A stretch of DNA of 64,000 bases from an uncultured Clostridia bacterium (GTDB lineage Bacteria > Bacillota > Clostridia > TANB77 > CAG-508), in contig CANQGP010000003.1 of NCBI GenBank assembly GCA_947623285.1, forward strand, positions 853-64,852, written 5' to 3'. Below are positions 15,158-51,674 of the stretch, in pieces. A program made the translations under genes and the position numbers. The first letter of the stretch is position 1; the number at the start of each line of letters is the position of its first letter. Under the pieces are notes generated by a model. It was not told the origin of the DNA, ran no database searches, and saw only the letters and a list, made by a program, of their open reading frames with translations.

Positions 15158-15178
15158 TCTTTGAAAATAAAAGGGGAT
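15158..15178 (+). repeat. attL core (TCTTTGAAAATAAAAGGGGAT)
   Basis: Identical 21-mer at 51654..51674. Both copies are preceded by a terminator hairpin. Confidence 0.8.
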
Positions 15179-15230: not shown

Positions 15231-15251
15231 TGTTAACAACGTGTTAATAAC
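15231..15251 (+). promoter_or_regulatory. 21-bp repeat TGTTAACAACGTGTTAATAAC (candidate arm-type Int/Xis site), left copy
   Basis: Identical copy at 51518..51538. Contains the palindrome TTAACA-acg-TGTTAA. Lies 53 bp inside attL. Confidence 0.5.
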
Positions 15252-15259
15252 TAATTAAT

Positions 15260-16439
15260 TTAAGATACATTTAGATAAGTTATTTTACTATTCTTTTTAG
15301 ATCTATAATCTACCATTTCTATAGTTTCAATTAATTCTTCAATGCTTTTTTTAGTATAAACATCTAGTCCAGTATCTCCAGATTTATGGCCTAGAATTTT
15401 GTCAATACATACTTTGTTTGCTCCAACTCTATCTAATTCAGAACGTAATGTTTTACGTCCATCGTGCGACGTATGATAATTTAAGTTAAGTTTTTTTAAA
15501 AAATTTTTAAAATTATAATAAAAGGCACCATATTTCATTTTATTTCCGTTTTTTATCTACAAGTAAAAATTCATTGCTGCTGTTATAATAATTAGCTATA
15601 ATAGGTATTATTTCAGAATGAATAGGTATAATTCTATTTTTGCTTGCTTCGGTTTTAATTCCTCCAGTCAAGTATTTTTCTTTTAGATGTATATTTTTGT
15701 TTTTTATGAAAAATATTTCTTCGATTCTCATTCCAGTATATAAAGTCATTAAAATAATATCAGCAACCAATTTACCTTTACATTTCCATATTTTTTGAAT
15801 TTCTTTATATGTATAAGGAATATTTTTCTTTTTCTTGTTAGTATATAAATTAGAACTTAATTTAAGATTATGAGCATAACCTTTCACTATAATGTCACTT
15901 TCTTCTGCGTAAATATCTAATTTTTTAAATAAATCTATAAGTCCGGATATAGTGCTACTACCGCCATTTGTATTTAATATGATTTCCAAAAAATCATCTT
16001 TCTTCAATGATTTATATAATTTATCGTAAAGTTTTTCGCATTTATTATATGCAGTTTTCAAAATTAAAGCTGACGAACGACCTAGTTTCCCTTTTGCTTT
16101 TATGTGTTCTTTTTTTTCTAGTTCCATTTCTTCTTTAGTGGGAAAATATTTTTCATTATATTCTTCATACACTTGCCTAAAAGTATATTCAGATTTGTCA
16201 ATATCAATATTACCTTTTTGTATATTGTATTTTGCAAGTAATAAATCAGGAATATCTCTGTCTGGAAAATATTTTCGTCCTTTATCATCTGATAATATTT
16301 TAGGTGGCAATGCTTTTCCAGTTTCTTTATCGTATTCAATCGGTGCTCTTGCAAACCATGGATTTCTGCGGTTGCCATTTAGTTTTACAACGCAACCAGT
16401 TCCGTTTGCTCTTTTCATTAAAAAACCTCCAAATTTCAA
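15260..16439 (-). pseudogene. int: tyrosine recombinase (phage integrase) split by a +1 frameshift in an A6 run
   Basis: N-part (15540..16439) carries the catalytic-Arg region TLYTGMRIEE. C-part (15260..15538) carries HDGRKT...LGH...Y. Removing one A from the run at 15549..15554 gives a continuous LLVDKNGNKMKYGAFYYNF. Length is 3n+1. Confidence 0.85.
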
Positions 16440-30311: not shown

Positions 30312-30381
30312 TGCGGAAAGCTAAGGCAGTACTCTAGGTTCATACCCTAGAACGTAGTAGGTTCGATTCCTACTTCCGCAA
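30312..30381 (+). tRNA. tRNA-like element with CAU anticodon loop and reduced D-arm
   Basis: Acceptor TGCGGAA/TTCCGCA. Anticodon arm CTAGG-TTCATAC-CCTAG. Canonical T-arm GTAGG-TTCGATT-CCTAC. Only 14 nt where the D-arm should be (3-bp stem possible, loop AAGGC). No encoded CCA. Confidence 0.4.
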
Positions 30382-30469
30382 TCAAGAGATTTTAAAGTAA
30401 ATCTAAAGAGCCTTTTATAGATAGTGCGAAGGACATAGCTGATATATGTCCTTTGTAGTGTTTATAAAA

Positions 30470-30523: not shown

Positions 30524-30703
30524 ATGAGTATTGAAAATATATTTAAGAAATTTAGTAAAGAAATATGTACTAATTGCATCAATAGAAAAGAATGTCAGGA
30601 AGAATTAAGAATTAAATTAGACGGCTCGGTTAAGTGTGATAGATATGAAAGAGAGAAAGAAAAGCAACCAATAGGTGTTTTAGTAAGAATGATGAGAATA
30701 TAG
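30524..30703 (+). CDS. small Cys-rich phage protein (59 aa)
   Basis: MSIENIFKKFSKEICTNCINRKECQEE...; AGGAG lies 7 nt upstream. The track's TTG at 30503 lies inside the repeats. Confidence 0.55.
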   Translation: MSIENIFKKFSKEICTNCINRKECQEELRIKLDGSVKCDRYEREKEKQPIGVLVRMMRI

Positions 30704-30717
30704 GAAAGAGGTAAAAA

Positions 30718-31191
30718 ATGGAGATAGTTTACAAAAAAGTTTTAGAATTAAAACCATATAAAAACAACCCTAGGATAAACGACGAGGCTGTTAAATACGT
30801 AAAGGAAAGTATTAAAGAATTTGGATTTAAAGTTCCAATAGTAATTGATGAAAATAACGAAATTATTGCAGGACATACCAGACTTAAGGCAGCAAAAGAA
30901 TTGGAGTTACAAGAAGTACCTTGTATAATTGCTAATGACTTAACTAAAGAACAAGTAAAAGCTTTTAGATTAGCTGATAATAAAGTATCGGAAAAAGCTG
31001 AATGGGATTTTGAATTGTTAGAGAGTGAATTAGCTGAAATAATAGATATTGATATGGAAAAATTTGACTTTTCAAAATTTAATGAAGAATTAGATGTTGA
31101 AGACGAAGACTTTATCAGCGATACAGAAATTACAAAACAAAAGAAGAGAATAGTTAAATGTCCACATTGTGGAGAGGAATTTGAAATATGA
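30718..31191 (+). CDS. ParB N-terminal (ParBc/sulfiredoxin-fold) domain protein with C-terminal zinc ribbon
   Basis: LKPYKNNPRINDEAVKYVKESIKEFGFKVPIVIDENNEIIAGHTRLKAAKELELQEVPCI is the ParBc core. CPHCGEEF at the C-terminus. Confidence 0.75.
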   Translation: MEIVYKKVLELKPYKNNPRINDEAVKYVKESIKEFGFKVPIVIDENNEIIAGHTRLKAAKELELQEVPCIIANDLTKEQVKAFRLADNKVSEKAEWDFELLESELAEIIDIDMEKFDFSKFNEELDVEDEDFISDTEITKQKKRIVKCPHCGEEFEI

Positions 31192-31953
31192 AAATTTTCC
31201 TTGCAGCTACAACAAGCGGAGTTAAAAATAGTCAAAGAGAAGAAATGATACAAAAAGGTAAACCAAAATATTTACTTGAAACATTTTTTAACGGAGAAAA
31301 GACATGTTTAAAAGTTTTGCAAGATGTTGGAGTTAACAATTTTTTGTTAGATAGTGGCGCTTTTAGTTATATGAGTGGAGCAGAATGCACAAAAGAACAA
31401 TTAGTAGAGTATATGGAAAAATATATATACTTTATAAACAAATACAATGTCGAATATTTTTTTGAGTTAGATGTAGACACAATATTTGGAATTGAATTTG
31501 TAGAAGAGTTGCGAGAAAAACTAGAAAAAGAAACTAACAAAAAATGTATTCCAGTATGGCACAAAGGCAGAGGAATAGAATATTGGAAAAAGATGTGTAA
31601 AAATTATAAATATGTTGCAATAGGACGGTTTAGTGTTTCACGTCAAAAAGCAAGAATATGACCTCATTAGGAAAATGGTAAAATATGCTTTTAATAAAGG
31701 AGTAAAAGTACACGGCTTAGGCTTTACAAAAACAAAAGAATTAAATAATTATAAGTTTTATAGTGTAGATAGTGCAAGTTTTACTAAAGGAGCGGCACTA
31801 GGACAACAGAAACAAACATTTAATGGTAAATTTATAGAAAGTAGAAGAATAGACGGAAAAGGTAAAAAAATAAAATTATCAAATTTAGTTATGTATAATT
31901 TTTATCAATGGTGTAATTTTCAAAAATATATGGATAATAAAAAATGGAGGTAA
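31188..31953 (+). pseudogene. DpdA-like DNA/tRNA-guanine transglycosylase-fold protein, +1 frameshift at ~31626
   Basis: Deleting C31626 gives ...KYVAIGGLVFHVKK.... Motifs LLDSGAFS (cf. TGT DSGGFQ), YVAIGGL (cf. YAIGGL) and VHGLGFT...SVDSASF. Length is 3n+1. Confidence 0.6.
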
Positions 31954-31956
31954 AAA

Positions 31957-32577
31957 ATGAAAAAAAAGAATGAAATTTTAAAAATATGTTTTGCGATTTA
32001 TTCAGCAGCAATAATAATTCAAAACGTTTTAGCAACTAAACAAATAGACATTTTTAAATTTACAGTAACAACAGGAATTTTAATATCACCATTAGTTTTT
32101 ATAATTCAAGATGTAGTCAGTGAAATTTTTAAATATAAAGAAGCTAAAAAAATGATACTGCTAGGTTTCTTTATGAATTTTATAGGAGTTATGTTTTTTA
32201 CCGTGGCAATTAACCTACCTAGTTCAAACTATTGGACTAATCAACAAGCATTTGCAACAGTACTAGGAACAACTTTCAGAATATCAATAGCAAGTTTTAC
32301 AGCTTATATAATAGGGTCATTAATAAACAGTAAAATTATGGTAAAGTTAAAAGAAAAAAACAATAGTTTATTTATTAGAGCGATAAGTTCAACAATAGTT
32401 GGACAATTTTTAGACAATTCGTTATTTGCTTTTATTGGATTTTTAGGAATATTACCATTAAACAGTATATTATCTATGATAATAGGCGCAACAATATTTG
32501 AAGTTATGTATGAAATAATATTATATCCTGTAACAAAATTTACTATAAAAAAACTAAACAATTATATTGTTAGTTAA
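31957..32577 (+). CDS. yhhQ: YhhQ/VUT (DUF165) family queuosine-precursor (preQ0/preQ1) transporter
   Basis: 206 aa, polytopic. NVLATKQI..., SPLVFIIQDVVSEIFKYKEAKK, RISIASFTAYIIGSLINS, RAISSTIVGQFLDNSLFAFIGF match YhhQ family blocks. Confidence 0.75.
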   Translation: MKKKNEILKICFAIYSAAIIIQNVLATKQIDIFKFTVTTGILISPLVFIIQDVVSEIFKYKEAKKMILLGFFMNFIGVMFFTVAINLPSSNYWTNQQAFATVLGTTFRISIASFTAYIIGSLINSKIMVKLKEKNNSLFIRAISSTIVGQFLDNSLFAFIGFLGILPLNSILSMIIGATIFEVMYEIILYPVTKFTIKKLNNYIVS

Positions 32578-32596: not shown

Positions 32597-33061
32597 ATGG
32601 CAAAATCTAAATGGGAACAAATAAAAGATAAATTAATATTGATTGAAGGCTGGGCAAGAGATGGCTTAACGGACGAACAAATTGCTAAAAATTTAGGAAT
32701 AAGTAAAGACACGTTTTATAAATACAAGAAAATACATACTGACTTTTCTGACGCCTTAAAAAAAGGAAAAGAAATTGTTGATTATGAAGTAGAAAACGCA
32801 TTACTAAAAAAAGCACTAGGATATGACTACGAAGAAAAGACATACAGAACAACAGTAGATAAAGAAACTGGAAAACAAAAAAGTACAATAGCTACAATAG
32901 TAAAAAAACACGTTCCGCCTGATACAACAGCTATGATATTTTGGTTGAAAAATAGAAAACCTAACAAATGGAGAGATAGGATTGAAAATGTAGTAAATAA
33001 TGATGAAATATCTAAAGTTGAGGAATTATTGAACGTTATAAAGCAAGAGGCTGAAAAATGA
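32597..33061 (+). CDS. terS: terminase small subunit
   Basis: HTH LTDEQIAKNLGISKDTFYKYKK and the ...PPDTTAMIFWLKNRKPNKWRD tail. GGTGGAG RBS. Precedes terL with an ATGA overlap. Confidence 0.8.
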   Translation: MAKSKWEQIKDKLILIEGWARDGLTDEQIAKNLGISKDTFYKYKKIHTDFSDALKKGKEIVDYEVENALLKKALGYDYEEKTYRTTVDKETGKQKSTIATIVKKHVPPDTTAMIFWLKNRKPNKWRDRIENVVNNDEISKVEELLNVIKQEAEK

Positions 33062-34314
33062 TATTAAGTGAAAAACAAAAAGAATTTATTAATAATGCTA
33101 ACCATAGATACAATATTAAAATAGGAGCAAGAAGAAGTGGAAAAACATATTTAGATATTTTATTTACAATTCCAAATAGGTTATTAGAAAGAAAAAACAA
33201 AGAAGGTTTAAACGTTATTTTAGGTGTTTCACAAGGTACTATTGAAAGAAATGTATTAAAACCATTAAGAGATAAATACGGAGAAAATTTAGTTAGTAGT
33301 ATTAATTCAAAAAATATTGCGGTTTTATTTGGGCAAGAAGTTTATTGTTTAGGAGCTGAAAAAGTCAGTCAAGTAGCAAAATTACAAGGAACAAGTATAA
33401 AATACTGCTATGGAGATGAAATTGCAAAATGGAATAAAGAAGTTTTTATCATTGTACAATCATCAATGGACAAAAAATATAGTTGTTTTGACGGTGCATT
33501 AAATCCAGAAAGCAAAACACATTGGTTTAAAAAAGAATTTTTGGATACAATAAAAGCAAAAAAACTAGATGTATATGTTCAGCATTATACTATATTTGAT
33601 AATAAGTTTTTACCTAAAATAGTTGTTGAAAACTTATGCAAAGAATATCAAGGAACTGTTTATTATAATAGATATATTTTAGGGCAATGGTGCAATGCAG
33701 AAGGTATAATATTTAAACAAATTGCAGACGACAAAGATAGATTTATAACAAAACAAGTTCAATTAAATTCATTTATAAGTATTGGAATTGACTGGGGCGG
33801 AAATAAATCAAAACACAGTATAACAGCAACTAAAATAGATAGAATGTATAGAAAAGTGCAAGTATTAAAATCTAGCACAATGGAAGCAACAGGCACAAAT
33901 ACAAAGAAAGTTTTTAGATGGATAATTAATTTTATAAAAGAGATACAGGACAAATATGGTACTGTGTCTTTTCTTTTTGCTGATAGTGCAGAACAAGTAC
34001 TTAATAATTCTTTAGAAGGTGTATTAAAAGAGAGTGGAATTAATTTAATAGTTCAAGATAGTGTGAAAACACAAATCAAAAATAGAATAGAAATGTTTAA
34101 TAGGTTATTAAATTTAGACAAATTAACTTTTATAGAAGGACAAACTGATACATTAGTCGAAGCATTACAAACAGCTTTATTTGATGATAAGTCAAAAGAT
34201 GATAGATGGGTTGATGACGGAGAAACATCAGACATTGACAGTTTAGATAGTTTTAATTATTCATTTGAATATTGGTTTGACGAAATATCTTATTATTTGA
34301 AAGAGGTAGCGTAA
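33058..34314 (+). CDS. terL: terminase large subunit (PBSX-type)
   Basis: Walker A GARRSGKT and Walker B-like region CYGDEIAKW. 418 aa. Confidence 0.85.
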   Translation: MILSEKQKEFINNANHRYNIKIGARRSGKTYLDILFTIPNRLLERKNKEGLNVILGVSQGTIERNVLKPLRDKYGENLVSSINSKNIAVLFGQEVYCLGAEKVSQVAKLQGTSIKYCYGDEIAKWNKEVFIIVQSSMDKKYSCFDGALNPESKTHWFKKEFLDTIKAKKLDVYVQHYTIFDNKFLPKIVVENLCKEYQGTVYYNRYILGQWCNAEGIIFKQIADDKDRFITKQVQLNSFISIGIDWGGNKSKHSITATKIDRMYRKVQVLKSSTMEATGTNTKKVFRWIINFIKEIQDKYGTVSFLFADSAEQVLNNSLEGVLKESGINLIVQDSVKTQIKNRIEMFNRLLNLDKLTFIEGQTDTLVEALQTALFDDKSKDDRWVDDGETSDIDSLDSFNYSFEYWFDEISYYLKEVA

Positions 34315-50171: not shown

Positions 50172-50540
50172 ATGGAACAGATTTTATATAATATACATTT
50201 TACAAATACGGCGTGGGCTTTTATTGCACCTATCGTATTAATGGCGTTAGATATAATAACTGGATATTATAACGCATATAAAAACAATGAAATATCAAGT
50301 TCAAAAATGCGTGATGGACTAGGGAAAAAATGTGCAGAACTATGCTATATAATCGTAGGTGTACTTTTAAAATTTGCAATAGGTGTAGACATGGCAATGT
50401 ACGGTTTAGTAATTTACGTATGTTTTATGGAAATAATAAGCTTAGCTGAAAATTGCGATAAGTTAGGTTTTACATTGCCAAAAATATTGAAAGAAAAATT
50501 GAATAATGTAAATGATGAAATAAATAAGGAGGACAAGTAG
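50172..50540 (+). CDS. holin
   Basis: 122 aa with three hydrophobic helices. ITGYYNAYKNNEISSSKMRDGLGKK is holin-family-like. Precedes the amidase. Confidence 0.75.
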   Translation: MEQILYNIHFTNTAWAFIAPIVLMALDIITGYYNAYKNNEISSSKMRDGLGKKCAELCYIIVGVLLKFAIGVDMAMYGLVIYVCFMEIISLAENCDKLGFTLPKILKEKLNNVNDEINKEDK

Positions 50541-50648
50541 TATGGAAGACAATATTGTAGAAGAAACAATTGAATTTTCTCAAGAGTTATATGAGAAAAA
50601 TATAGCTGAGAATAAATTTAATGTTGAATATGAGGCAGGTGAAGACGA

Positions 50649-51473
50649 ATGCAAATAACTAACGTAACGTGTCCAGTCTCAAAATATTCAATTAAATGTC
50701 CAGATGTAACGAACAAAGACGGAATATGTGTGCATAATACAGCAAATGACGCAAGTGCAATGAGTGAAATATCTTATATGATAGGTAATGGAGAAAAATG
50801 CTCATTTCATGTTGCAGTGGACAATTATAGAGTTGTTACAGGATTGCCGTTCGACAGAAGTTGCTACGCCTCAGGAGATGGAAGGTATGGAAGTGGAAAC
50901 GCACACAAAATACATATTGAAATTTGTTATTCAAAATCTGGTGGACAGAATTTTGAAGAAAGTGAAAATATGGCAAGTGCTTATATTGCATTGCTTTTAA
51001 AACAATATGGCTGGGGAATAGACAGAGTTTTCAAACATCAAGATTTTGCAAATAAGTATTGTCCACACAGGACACTTGATTTAGGTTGGGAAAGATTTTT
51101 AAATAAAATAAGAGAGCAAATGGGATTGCAAGCTCAACCAATACCTCAAATTCAAGATACAGGAGGTGAACTAGAAATGGCAAGAGTTTACCAAAATGGA
51201 ACTACACCAGAGCCAGTATATACTGATACAGATTTGACTACAAGAATAGGTTGCCTAAATCCTCATGAGAAAGTTGAATATTTAAGCATTGATAAAGGCA
51301 GACCATTAGTTAGATATACTGTTGATGGAACAAGTAGGAAAAAATGTGGATATGTAGCATGGAGAGGACGGAGCAAAATAGAAATTGTAGGAACAATGTT
51401 TATTAATATGAAAACAAAAACTTCTGGTATTAAAAAATACTGGAAGTTTTTTCGTGTTTTAAATTTTATTTGA
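50649..51473 (+). CDS. N-acetylmuramoyl-L-alanine amidase endolysin (Amidase_2/PGRP type) with C-terminal binding domain
   Basis: GICVHNTAND...FHVAVD...HIEICYS...KHQDFANKYCPHR carries the zinc-amidase motifs. Confidence 0.85.
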   Translation: MQITNVTCPVSKYSIKCPDVTNKDGICVHNTANDASAMSEISYMIGNGEKCSFHVAVDNYRVVTGLPFDRSCYASGDGRYGSGNAHKIHIEICYSKSGGQNFEESENMASAYIALLLKQYGWGIDRVFKHQDFANKYCPHRTLDLGWERFLNKIREQMGLQAQPIPQIQDTGGELEMARVYQNGTTPEPVYTDTDLTTRIGCLNPHEKVEYLSIDKGRPLVRYTVDGTSRKKCGYVAWRGRSKIEIVGTMFINMKTKTSGIKKYWKFFRVLNFI

Positions 51474-51653: not shown

Positions 51654-51674
51654 TCTTTGAAAATAAAAGGGGAT
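51654..51674 (+). repeat. attR core (TCTTTGAAAATAAAAGGGGAT)
   Basis: Identical to 15158..15178. Preceded by the hairpin AGAAGAGAAA..TTTCTCTTCT. Confidence 0.8.

Follow-up and report, generated by a model that had tools for sequence, protein, structure and literature searches.

A 64-kb stretch of DNA from an uncultured Clostridia bacterium (hereafter the window, to whose full length all coordinates refer) contains a prophage in which three consecutive genes encode a ParB-like N-domain protein, a DpdA-family transglycosylase and a YhhQ-family transporter. With moderate confidence, we assign them to a widespread modular phage cassette, arranged as ParB (N-domain), DpdA, 7-deazaguanine supply and terminase, that would hypermodify phage DNA before packaging and whose dpdA gene is broken in this copy. 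A preliminary description of the window had placed the three open reading frames (ORFs) just 5′ of the terminase, and their coordinates proved exact, with overlaps and spacers as found there:

30718-31191, + strand: ParB N-domain gene, 157 amino acids (Pfam, PHROG, PDB phmmer, AF2/Foldseek)
31188-31953, + strand: dpdA pseudogene, in two pieces, 31188-31661 (157 amino acids) and 31633-31953 (106 amino acids, other frame)
31626, + strand: extra C in dpdA (seen by aligning intact homologues, A1 and A2)
31957-32577, + strand: YhhQ/QPTR (COG1738, Vut_1) transporter, 206 amino acids
32597-33061, + strand: terS, terminase small subunit (phrog_309, 9.4e-60; start from the gene call in locus L008)
33058-34314, + strand: terL, terminase large subunit (Terminase_3 / Terminase_6N in the identical locus L008)

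The parB stop and the dpdA start overlap in an ATGA (31188-31191), and only 3 nt separate dpdA from yhhQ. The 19-nt gap between yhhQ and terS holds a GGTGGAG ribosome-binding site ahead of the terS ATG at 32597, and terL comes next.

Removal of C31626 from the second gene yields a DpdA of 254 amino acids (one fewer than the 255 first given for the corrected frame). Over its full length, this protein can be aligned with 45 intact homologues, which are ~253 amino acids long and 59-76% identical to it. The same removal restores the junction motif YVAIGGLVFHVKKQEY, nearly invariant among the intact homologues. A PHROG search with the repaired protein returned phrog_887, 'queuine tRNA-ribosyltransferase', at 3.9e-53, and hhalign pairs it with the DpdA enzymes of phages CAjan (probability 99%, E 4.6e-18) and Rosebush (95.8%, E 8e-9). 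By tblastn, it is ~30% identical to CAjan/9g-type DpdA at 81% query coverage. An AlphaFold2 (AF2) model of the repaired protein is of high quality (pLDDT 93.2, pTM 0.90), and the top 50 Foldseek matches in the PDB are tRNA-guanine transglycosylases (TGTs) throughout (prob 1.0, TMq 0.60-0.65). Invariant in 46 DpdA sequences are D55 (LLDSGAFS), D95/D97, H175-G176-L177-G178 and D194 (VDSAS), with which the CAjan motifs align; the motifs LDSGAFS, IGG(L/M)V, H(G/A)(L/F)G and (V/C)DS(A/S)SW are common to this DpdA, CAjan and Rosebush. The DSG and VDS aspartates probably correspond to the TGT catalytic residues. Gene 2 is thus a DpdA-family TGT-fold enzyme, as the preliminary description had proposed, and by homology it would exchange guanine in DNA.

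The first gene encodes a 157-amino-acid protein with a ParB_N domain (PF02195; Pfam 6e-10, 39.5 bits against a gathering score of 26.3) and matches phrog_620 at 3.5e-58, in agreement with its initial reading as a ParBc-domain protein. Its best PDB sequence match by phmmer is the CTPase N-domain of Bacillus subtilis Spo0J (6SDK, 3.7e-6), with AGHTRLKAA (GxxRxxA) aligned to GERRFRAA of Spo0J and ADNK to ENLQ. The AF2 model (pLDDT 85) finds CTP/CDP-bound ParB structures at the top of the Foldseek results (7BNR, 7BNK and 6SDK; rmsd 1.7-1.9 Å over 92 columns, 29-30% identity). Across 39 homologues, G52 H53 T54 R55, D87 N88 and C148 P149 C151 do not vary; the first two groups belong to the GxxRxxA and (E/D)N boxes of the nucleotide pocket of ParB CTPases (ParB/Srx superfamily). 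The domain architecture is minimal: past residue ~116, a low-confidence acidic linker leads to a CPHCGEEFEI tail, and the protein ends at residue 157 without the helix-turn-helix (HTH) parS-binding domain or the C-terminal dimerization domain. Because both domains are absent and TIGR00180 scores below its cutoff (50.2 bits against 58.45, over the N-domain only), gene 1 is not a partition ParB. Residues 1-131 also match the N-termini of phage ParB-methyltransferases and 'nuclease' PHROGs (phrog_498 at 1.4e-42, phrog_940 at 1.9e-37 and PADLOC MTase_II at 4e-24).

Two features first ascribed to this protein are revised. It had been called DpdB-like, after the partner of bacterial DpdA, which is defined by a DGQQR motif, an SspE-like α-helical C-terminal domain and a ~40-47 kDa monomer (PMC10164549). 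Gene 1 has AGHTRLKAA and no DGQ motif, so the DpdB-type DGQQR is absent, as is an SspE-like C-domain; its best PDB matches are Spo0J and CTP/CDP-bound ParB. DpdB/DndB models gave no match at E≤0.1 in Pfam, NCBIfam and PADLOC, libraries in each of which the presence of a DpdB model is unconfirmed. Gene 1 is accordingly classed, from its motifs and predicted fold, as a canonical ParB CTPase-type N-domain protein and not of DpdB/DndB type. What had been taken for a zinc ribbon at the C-terminus consists of one CPHC knuckle, and every zinc-ribbon match in Pfam stays below its cutoff (E 0.014-0.09). This CPxCG knuckle (31159-31173, residues 148-152), present in ~47 of 52 dpdA-linked ParBs, is half a zinc site whose partner in cis is not obvious; as a speculation, it might form an intermolecular zinc site, ParB-ParB or ParB-DpdA. 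An interpretation of the tail as a DpdA-specific adaptation was rejected, as it also occurs on ParBs away from dpdA in Fusobacterium phage phiFN37 and in locus L064.

The third gene contains the Vut_1 Pfam domain (3.9e-39, 134.9 bits against 27.2) and passes the NCBIfam equivalog TIGR00697, 'queuosine precursor transporter' (106.5 bits, cutoff 50.95), which confirms its first assignment to YhhQ/DUF165. PRK11212, the equivalog for the E. coli-type preQ0/preQ1 transporter, is not passed (57.1 bits, cutoff 252). Gene 3 is therefore a predicted YhhQ/QPTR queuosine-precursor transporter. Both QPTR and QueT transporters import queuosine (Q) precursors, with a role in tRNA-Q salvage (PMC11130926).

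The DpdA clade comprises 4417 clusters at 90% identity. We compared 137 loci, 57 from species-representative (GTDB) genomes and 80 from IMG/VR, by scanning their six-frame ORFs with seed proteins. An ORF with a ParB N-domain lies directly 5′ of dpdA in 126 of the 132 loci with room for one (52/55 in GTDB, 74/77 in IMG/VR). The linkage also holds when approached from the other side: all four ParB homologues picked on contigs that were not among the DpdA search hits are followed by dpdA, two of them with tandem ParB genes. Of 11 called parB-dpdA pairs, 10 have overlapping start and stop codons, and the pair spans Terminase_3, Terminase_6N and Terminase_5/AAA backbones as well as loci without a nearby terminase. 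The slot 3′ of dpdA is followed, where the contig goes on, by a terS, terL or portal gene, with several terminase families represented. Its contents are as follows:

YhhQ alone (in some loci with a small DUF6884 gene between): GTDB 29, IMG/VR 51
S-adenosylmethionine (SAM) methyltransferase and QueT: GTDB 6, IMG/VR 0
QueC and YhhQ: GTDB 3, IMG/VR 1
Full or partial QueC/D/E/FolE: GTDB 15, IMG/VR 24
Nothing recognizable: GTDB 1, IMG/VR 3
Contig without room: GTDB 3, IMG/VR 1

QueT, an energy-coupling factor (ECF) S-component, is the other known family of Q-precursor transporters, and the six QueT loci come from Faecalibacterium and related bins. Because YhhQ, the unrelated QueT and the preQ0 pathway substitute for one another in a single slot, the transporter would be the source of the base used by DpdA, and this interchange is the strongest evidence available for that role. 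In the window, phmmer with CAjan and Rosebush seeds detects no QueC, QueD, QueE or FolE at E<1e-3 in any of the six-frame ORFs, in keeping with the original observation that the prophage lacks these genes; the identical seeds detect such genes in 18 other loci. The earlier notion of a minimal module that imports its base is supported for the enzyme, the transporter and the missing synthesis genes, gains strength from the interchange in the slot, and fails for the DpdB-like partner.

The slot and its surroundings vary in further ways among the relatives. Faecalibacterium-type slots (L027 10722-12365; also L028, L029, L038, L040 and L049) pair a methyltransferase (Methyltransf_23/11) with QueT (PF06177), with terS next in L027; this combination suggests use of imported preQ1, perhaps of a methylated derivative. 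The DUF6884 gene (6.3e-41) lies between dpdA and yhhQ in phiFN37 (L001 6760-7194), L039, L041, L044, L134, L148 and L151. Its product resembles PF03883 (YaaA/DUF328, the DpdC family) weakly, at a score below the cutoff, and may convert 2′-deoxy-preQ0 (dPreQ0) to dADG (2′-deoxy-7-amido-7-deazaguanosine). A DpdA-QueC-YhhQ variant is seen in L030, L046, L048, L073 and L136, where QueC, the last enzyme of preQ0 synthesis, hints at import of 7-carboxy-7-deazaguanine (CDG) or at an amidation role of QueC. In L071 (2920-3980) and L072 (3501-4435), dpdA comes after two ParB N-domain genes in tandem, and in L072 a radical-SAM gene and two glycosyltransferases lie just 5′. The closest relative, L002 (DpdA 76% identical), has genes for ThyX, a dGTP_diPhyd_N-domain protein and a FolD-like protein just 5′ of its cassette (284-2505); this group of nucleotide-metabolism genes may be a sign of additional DNA chemistry.

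In the mechanism we propose, YhhQ/QPTR would import a free 7-deazaguanine base during lytic growth, most likely preQ0, with preQ1 or another Q precursor possible. DpdA would then replace guanine in double-stranded phage DNA with the imported base, as its CAjan and Rosebush homologues do. The short ParB, judged by its fold, motifs and strict linkage, would act as a nucleotide-dependent, DNA-engaging partner of DpdA, in a role analogous but not orthologous to that of bacterial DpdB, and the modified, packaged DNA would be protected from restriction. In CAjan and Rosebush, DpdA-dependent dPreQ0 replaces about 32% and 28% of G, respectively, and confers restriction resistance (PMC6884629), and bacterial DpdA requires the ParB-fold ATPase DpdB (PMC10164549).

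Several points weigh against this proposal. The Pfam scan places the repaired DpdA in no family, and when a profile built from the DpdA alignment is run against PDB sequences, it returns no TGT, just a chance match to Homer (E 0.054). Models of bacterial DpdA (NCBIfam NF041059, PADLOC) match residues 139-199 only, with 28.7 bits for NF041059 against a cutoff of 200. The substrate of a QPTR transporter cannot be read from its sequence, being preQ0/preQ1 in E. coli and queuine in Chlamydia (PMC11130926). No experimental test of a transporter-only phage was found in the searchable literature. Orion, the one DpdA-only phage tested on a host without preQ0 synthesis, showed no modification, and deletion of yhhQ in CAjan left modification unchanged (PMC6884629, PMC7544227). 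Short ParBs with a CPxCG tail occur away from dpdA as well (the third ParB of phiFN37); since they do, and since the N-domain resembles that of ParB-methyltransferase fusions, ParB could be a general accessory or act independently. Finally, the frameshift could be a sequencing error common to assemblies of the same reads.

This last point bears on whether the cassette is intact and active in the window, with the frameshift an artefact of sequencing or assembly, which we regard as unlikely. In its favor, all 63 of the 63 family-invariant DpdA positions are kept across the two sides of the break, with no second lesion, and the independent Logan assembly that matches the region (ERR10663787; 100% identical over 5650 bp, C31626 included) may come from the same reads. 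Against it, the site, GGACGG, contains no homopolymer, the truncated 157-amino-acid product is recorded on 8 contigs (NCBI, ENA and Logan), and broken dpdA copies recur in other (pro)phages: split or truncated genes are found in L053, L064, L065, L148, L151 and CDKM15. The frameshift therefore reads as a real inactivation, and a recent one, because all family-invariant residues are intact on either side. C31626 leaves the DSG aspartate on the N-terminal fragment and the HGLG and VDS motifs on the separate one, and because the catalytic-type motifs are split in this way, this dpdA copy is most likely non-functional and probably modifies nothing. The break in the transglycosylase frame, already noted in the preliminary description, is thus upheld by intact homologues that align across C31626. 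Programmed frameshifting was considered and rejected: relatives have a single uninterrupted ORF, and AUA GGA CGG UUU offers the P-site tRNA no +1 pairing. The DpdA that Hutinet 2019 gives for Clostridium phage CDKM15 (L069 3201-4072) is a remnant of 78 amino acids. It lies at the genome end beside a queuosine precursor transporter gene that is intact, and ParB is missing, so that here too the cassette has decayed.

Two further explanations concern the partners of DpdA. The ParB-like gene might be independent of DpdA and encode, for example, a nuclease, a factor for packaging or partition, or an accessory to another enzyme, with adjacency due to a shared variable region of accessory genes 5′ of terS. 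The matches of its N-domain to ParB-methyltransferase fusions and 'nuclease' PHROGs fit this idea, as do the additional CPxCG-tailed ParB genes of phiFN37 and L064 that do not adjoin dpdA, the CAjan/9g-type DpdA clusters without an annotated ParB neighbor, and the 9g DpdA, which put preQ0 into plasmid DNA when expressed alone. We nevertheless consider independence quite improbable, given that the 126/132 linkage persists across different terminase backbones and terminase-less loci, that most pairs overlap at stop and start, that all four ParB homologues sampled without a DpdA reference adjoin dpdA, and that the pairing reaches the actinophage Rosebush. A very improbable explanation is that enzyme and transporter act on tRNA, with a Q precursor imported and host or phage tRNA remodeled to tune translation, or that yhhQ is a lysogenic-conversion gene for queuosine salvage by the host. 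The fold is that of a tRNA-guanine transglycosylase, the characterized role of YhhQ is tRNA-Q salvage (PMC11130926), DNA modification is unchanged in CAjan ΔyhhQ, and a tRNA-like gene lies 340 nt upstream. That element, however, has a CAU anticodon and not the GUN of Q-tRNAs, and the nearest characterized homologues of the enzyme are DNA-modifying phage DpdAs. At 254 amino acids, DpdA is also shorter than the 355-389 residues of the matched TGT structures, less than half of which is covered by TM-score; its partner ParB is of a DNA-binding family, the cassette adjoins packaging genes, and in other loci the slot is taken by complete preQ0 pathways, as it is in Rosebush, whose DNA contains dPreQ0.

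The cassette lies in a window of 28% G+C that contains a prophage beside host genes, among them gatA/gatB and a gene for a ClpC-like ATPase. Features that mark the prophage and the 5′ side of the cassette are:

15159-15178 and 51655-51674: 20-bp direct repeat CTTTGAAAATAAAAGGGGAT, with ~40 nt of similarity around it
15540-16439: integrase of the prophage
30312-30381, + strand: tRNA-like element (Rfam tRNA, 32.1 bits, gathering score 29)
30425-30457, + strand: terminator-like hairpin, a 13-pair stem and then a T-rich tail (consensus scan; weak evidence)
50172-51473: holin-like gene and amidase of the prophage

The CTTTGAAAATAAAAGGGGAT repeats probably mark attL and attR, which would give the prophage a length of about 36.5 kb; another repeat, of 21 bp, is found at 15231 and 51518, in the opposite relative order. 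The hairpin at 30425-30457 is the probable 5′ boundary of the transcription unit that includes the cassette. Upstream of the cassette, a 159-amino-acid protein has a weak, below-cutoff match to sigma-70 region 4, and between parB and terS the sole terminator-like match is a weak one within yhhQ (32387-32404). From the sigma-70-like protein, the hairpin and this single weak match, with all of which a late operon is consistent, we infer the late operon that the preliminary description had asserted outright. No preQ1 riboswitch or other regulatory RNA was found in the cassette by Rfam, either at the gathering threshold or at E≤1.

The tRNA-like element is flanked by the late-regulator-like gene and the cassette, with the hairpin after it. 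Its acceptor stem is 7 bp long and its T arm good, whereas the D arm is degenerate; the anticodon loop reads UUCAUAC (CAU, Met/Ile2-like). Its G+C content is 47%, against 28% for the window, and ARAGORN gave no call. A 59-amino-acid ORF (30526-30703, + strand) with four cysteines (CTNC...C...C) lies directly 5′ of parB. It is a called gene in the identical Logan contig and has a weak PHROG match only, and its conservation among relatives is not obvious.

This locus matters less than its family, because its enzyme gene is broken. In the proven cases of 7-deazaguanine modification in phages, preQ0 is made by the phage itself or taken from a preQ0-making host. If the transporter-only cassette works, very common gut prophages depend for the protection of their DNA on a micronutrient obtained by cross-feeding (preQ0, preQ1 or queuine). 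The ecology of queuosine would then be connected with phage-host dynamics and with the susceptibility of phage DNA to restriction enzymes and Cas9. The near-obligate ParB partner also offers a small, tractable system in which to ask why DNA transglycosylases need a ParB-fold NTPase, a question that bacterial DpdA/DpdB poses too. A more sweeping and tentative synthesis, which we hold to be possible but doubtful, joins these strands: a large clade of temperate phages of gut anaerobes may hypermodify their DNA solely with 7-deazaguanines that QPTR or QueT takes up from the surrounding community; their DpdA may need a minimal canonical ParB as DNA loader, a second, independent recruitment of the ParB fold beside DpdB, which would dimerize or dock through the CPxCG half-site; and accessories in the slot (a methyltransferase with QueT; DUF6884 or QueC with YhhQ) may set the final base. 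If this synthesis is true, restriction evasion by such phages depends on which queuosine precursors are locally available.

The kind of system described here, DpdA-based 7-deazaguanine modification in phages, is already known, and the idea of salvage is already in print. Hutinet 2019 noted YhhQ genes in some phages and stated that phages with DpdA alone may draw on precursors from outside; in its Supplementary Data 1, Clostridium phage CDKM15 is entered with DpdA and YhhQ only. A 2016 review reported yhhQ inside some bacterial dpd clusters and read it as possible preQ0 salvage into DNA (PMC5699537), and a 2019 paper on phage CRB2 suggested that ORF1 is a dpdB homologue. The arrangement had been presented in the preliminary description as not described for phages, which does not hold given the deposited phiFN37, the ParB-DpdA pair of Rosebush and the salvage idea of Hutinet 2019. 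Within the searchable literature, we found no paper on the cassette itself, and no recognition of a canonical ParB as a near-obligatory neighbor of this DpdA clade, of the transporter-only form as the commonest in gut Firmicutes prophages, or of QueT with a methyltransferase in the slot after DpdA.

The closest described counterpart is Fusobacterium phage phiFN37 (OR492271), where genes annotated as ParB, queuine tRNA-ribosyltransferase and queuosine precursor transporter follow one another in the identical order. Its cassette is intact, its DpdA is 39% identical to that of the window, and its ParB shares the GH(T/G)R motif and the CPHCG tail. It differs in an added DUF6884 gene, with its weak DpdC-family match, which is absent from the window cassette. 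Closer relatives (60-76% identity), found in Clostridioides difficile (GCA_053878555), in Thomasclavelia cocleata and in gut metagenomes, show the identical three-gene layout 5′ of the terminase, also intact, and blastn of the region against phage records returns partial matches only, to ParB and terS. Rosebush has a comparable gene order, with ParB-like gp1, DpdA gp2, supply genes (QueC/D/E-FolE) and TerL; its gp1 is 25% identical to the window ParB (E 7e-5) and lacks the CPxCG tail. The CAjan cluster contains yhhQ and has no annotated ParB neighbor. Unlike CAjan- and Rosebush-type clusters, the window and about half of its relatives have the transporter only, without FolE, QueD, QueE or QueC, and the window DpdA, at 254 amino acids, is shorter than the enzymes of these two phages (306 and 385).

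The bacterial Dpd system (DpdA/DpdB/DpdC; Salmonella Montevideo) likewise combines a TGT-fold DNA transglycosylase with a ParB-superfamily NTPase. Bacterial DpdB, however, belongs to the DndB/SspE branch and has a large helical C-domain, whereas the window ParB is a canonical N-domain of 157 amino acids. The window cassette also lacks the DpdC-K restriction genes of bacterial Dpd, and its DpdA matches the bacterial DpdA model over ~60 residues only. The known role of QPTR and QueT transporters is cellular tRNA-Q salvage, with a substrate that varies among preQ0, preQ1 and queuine. In phage ParB-methyltransferase fusions (phrog_498, PADLOC MTase_II), many of them in Firmicutes prophages, the same N-domain and helices are fused to an enzyme, whereas in the window, ParB is a separate polypeptide, translationally coupled to the transglycosylase.

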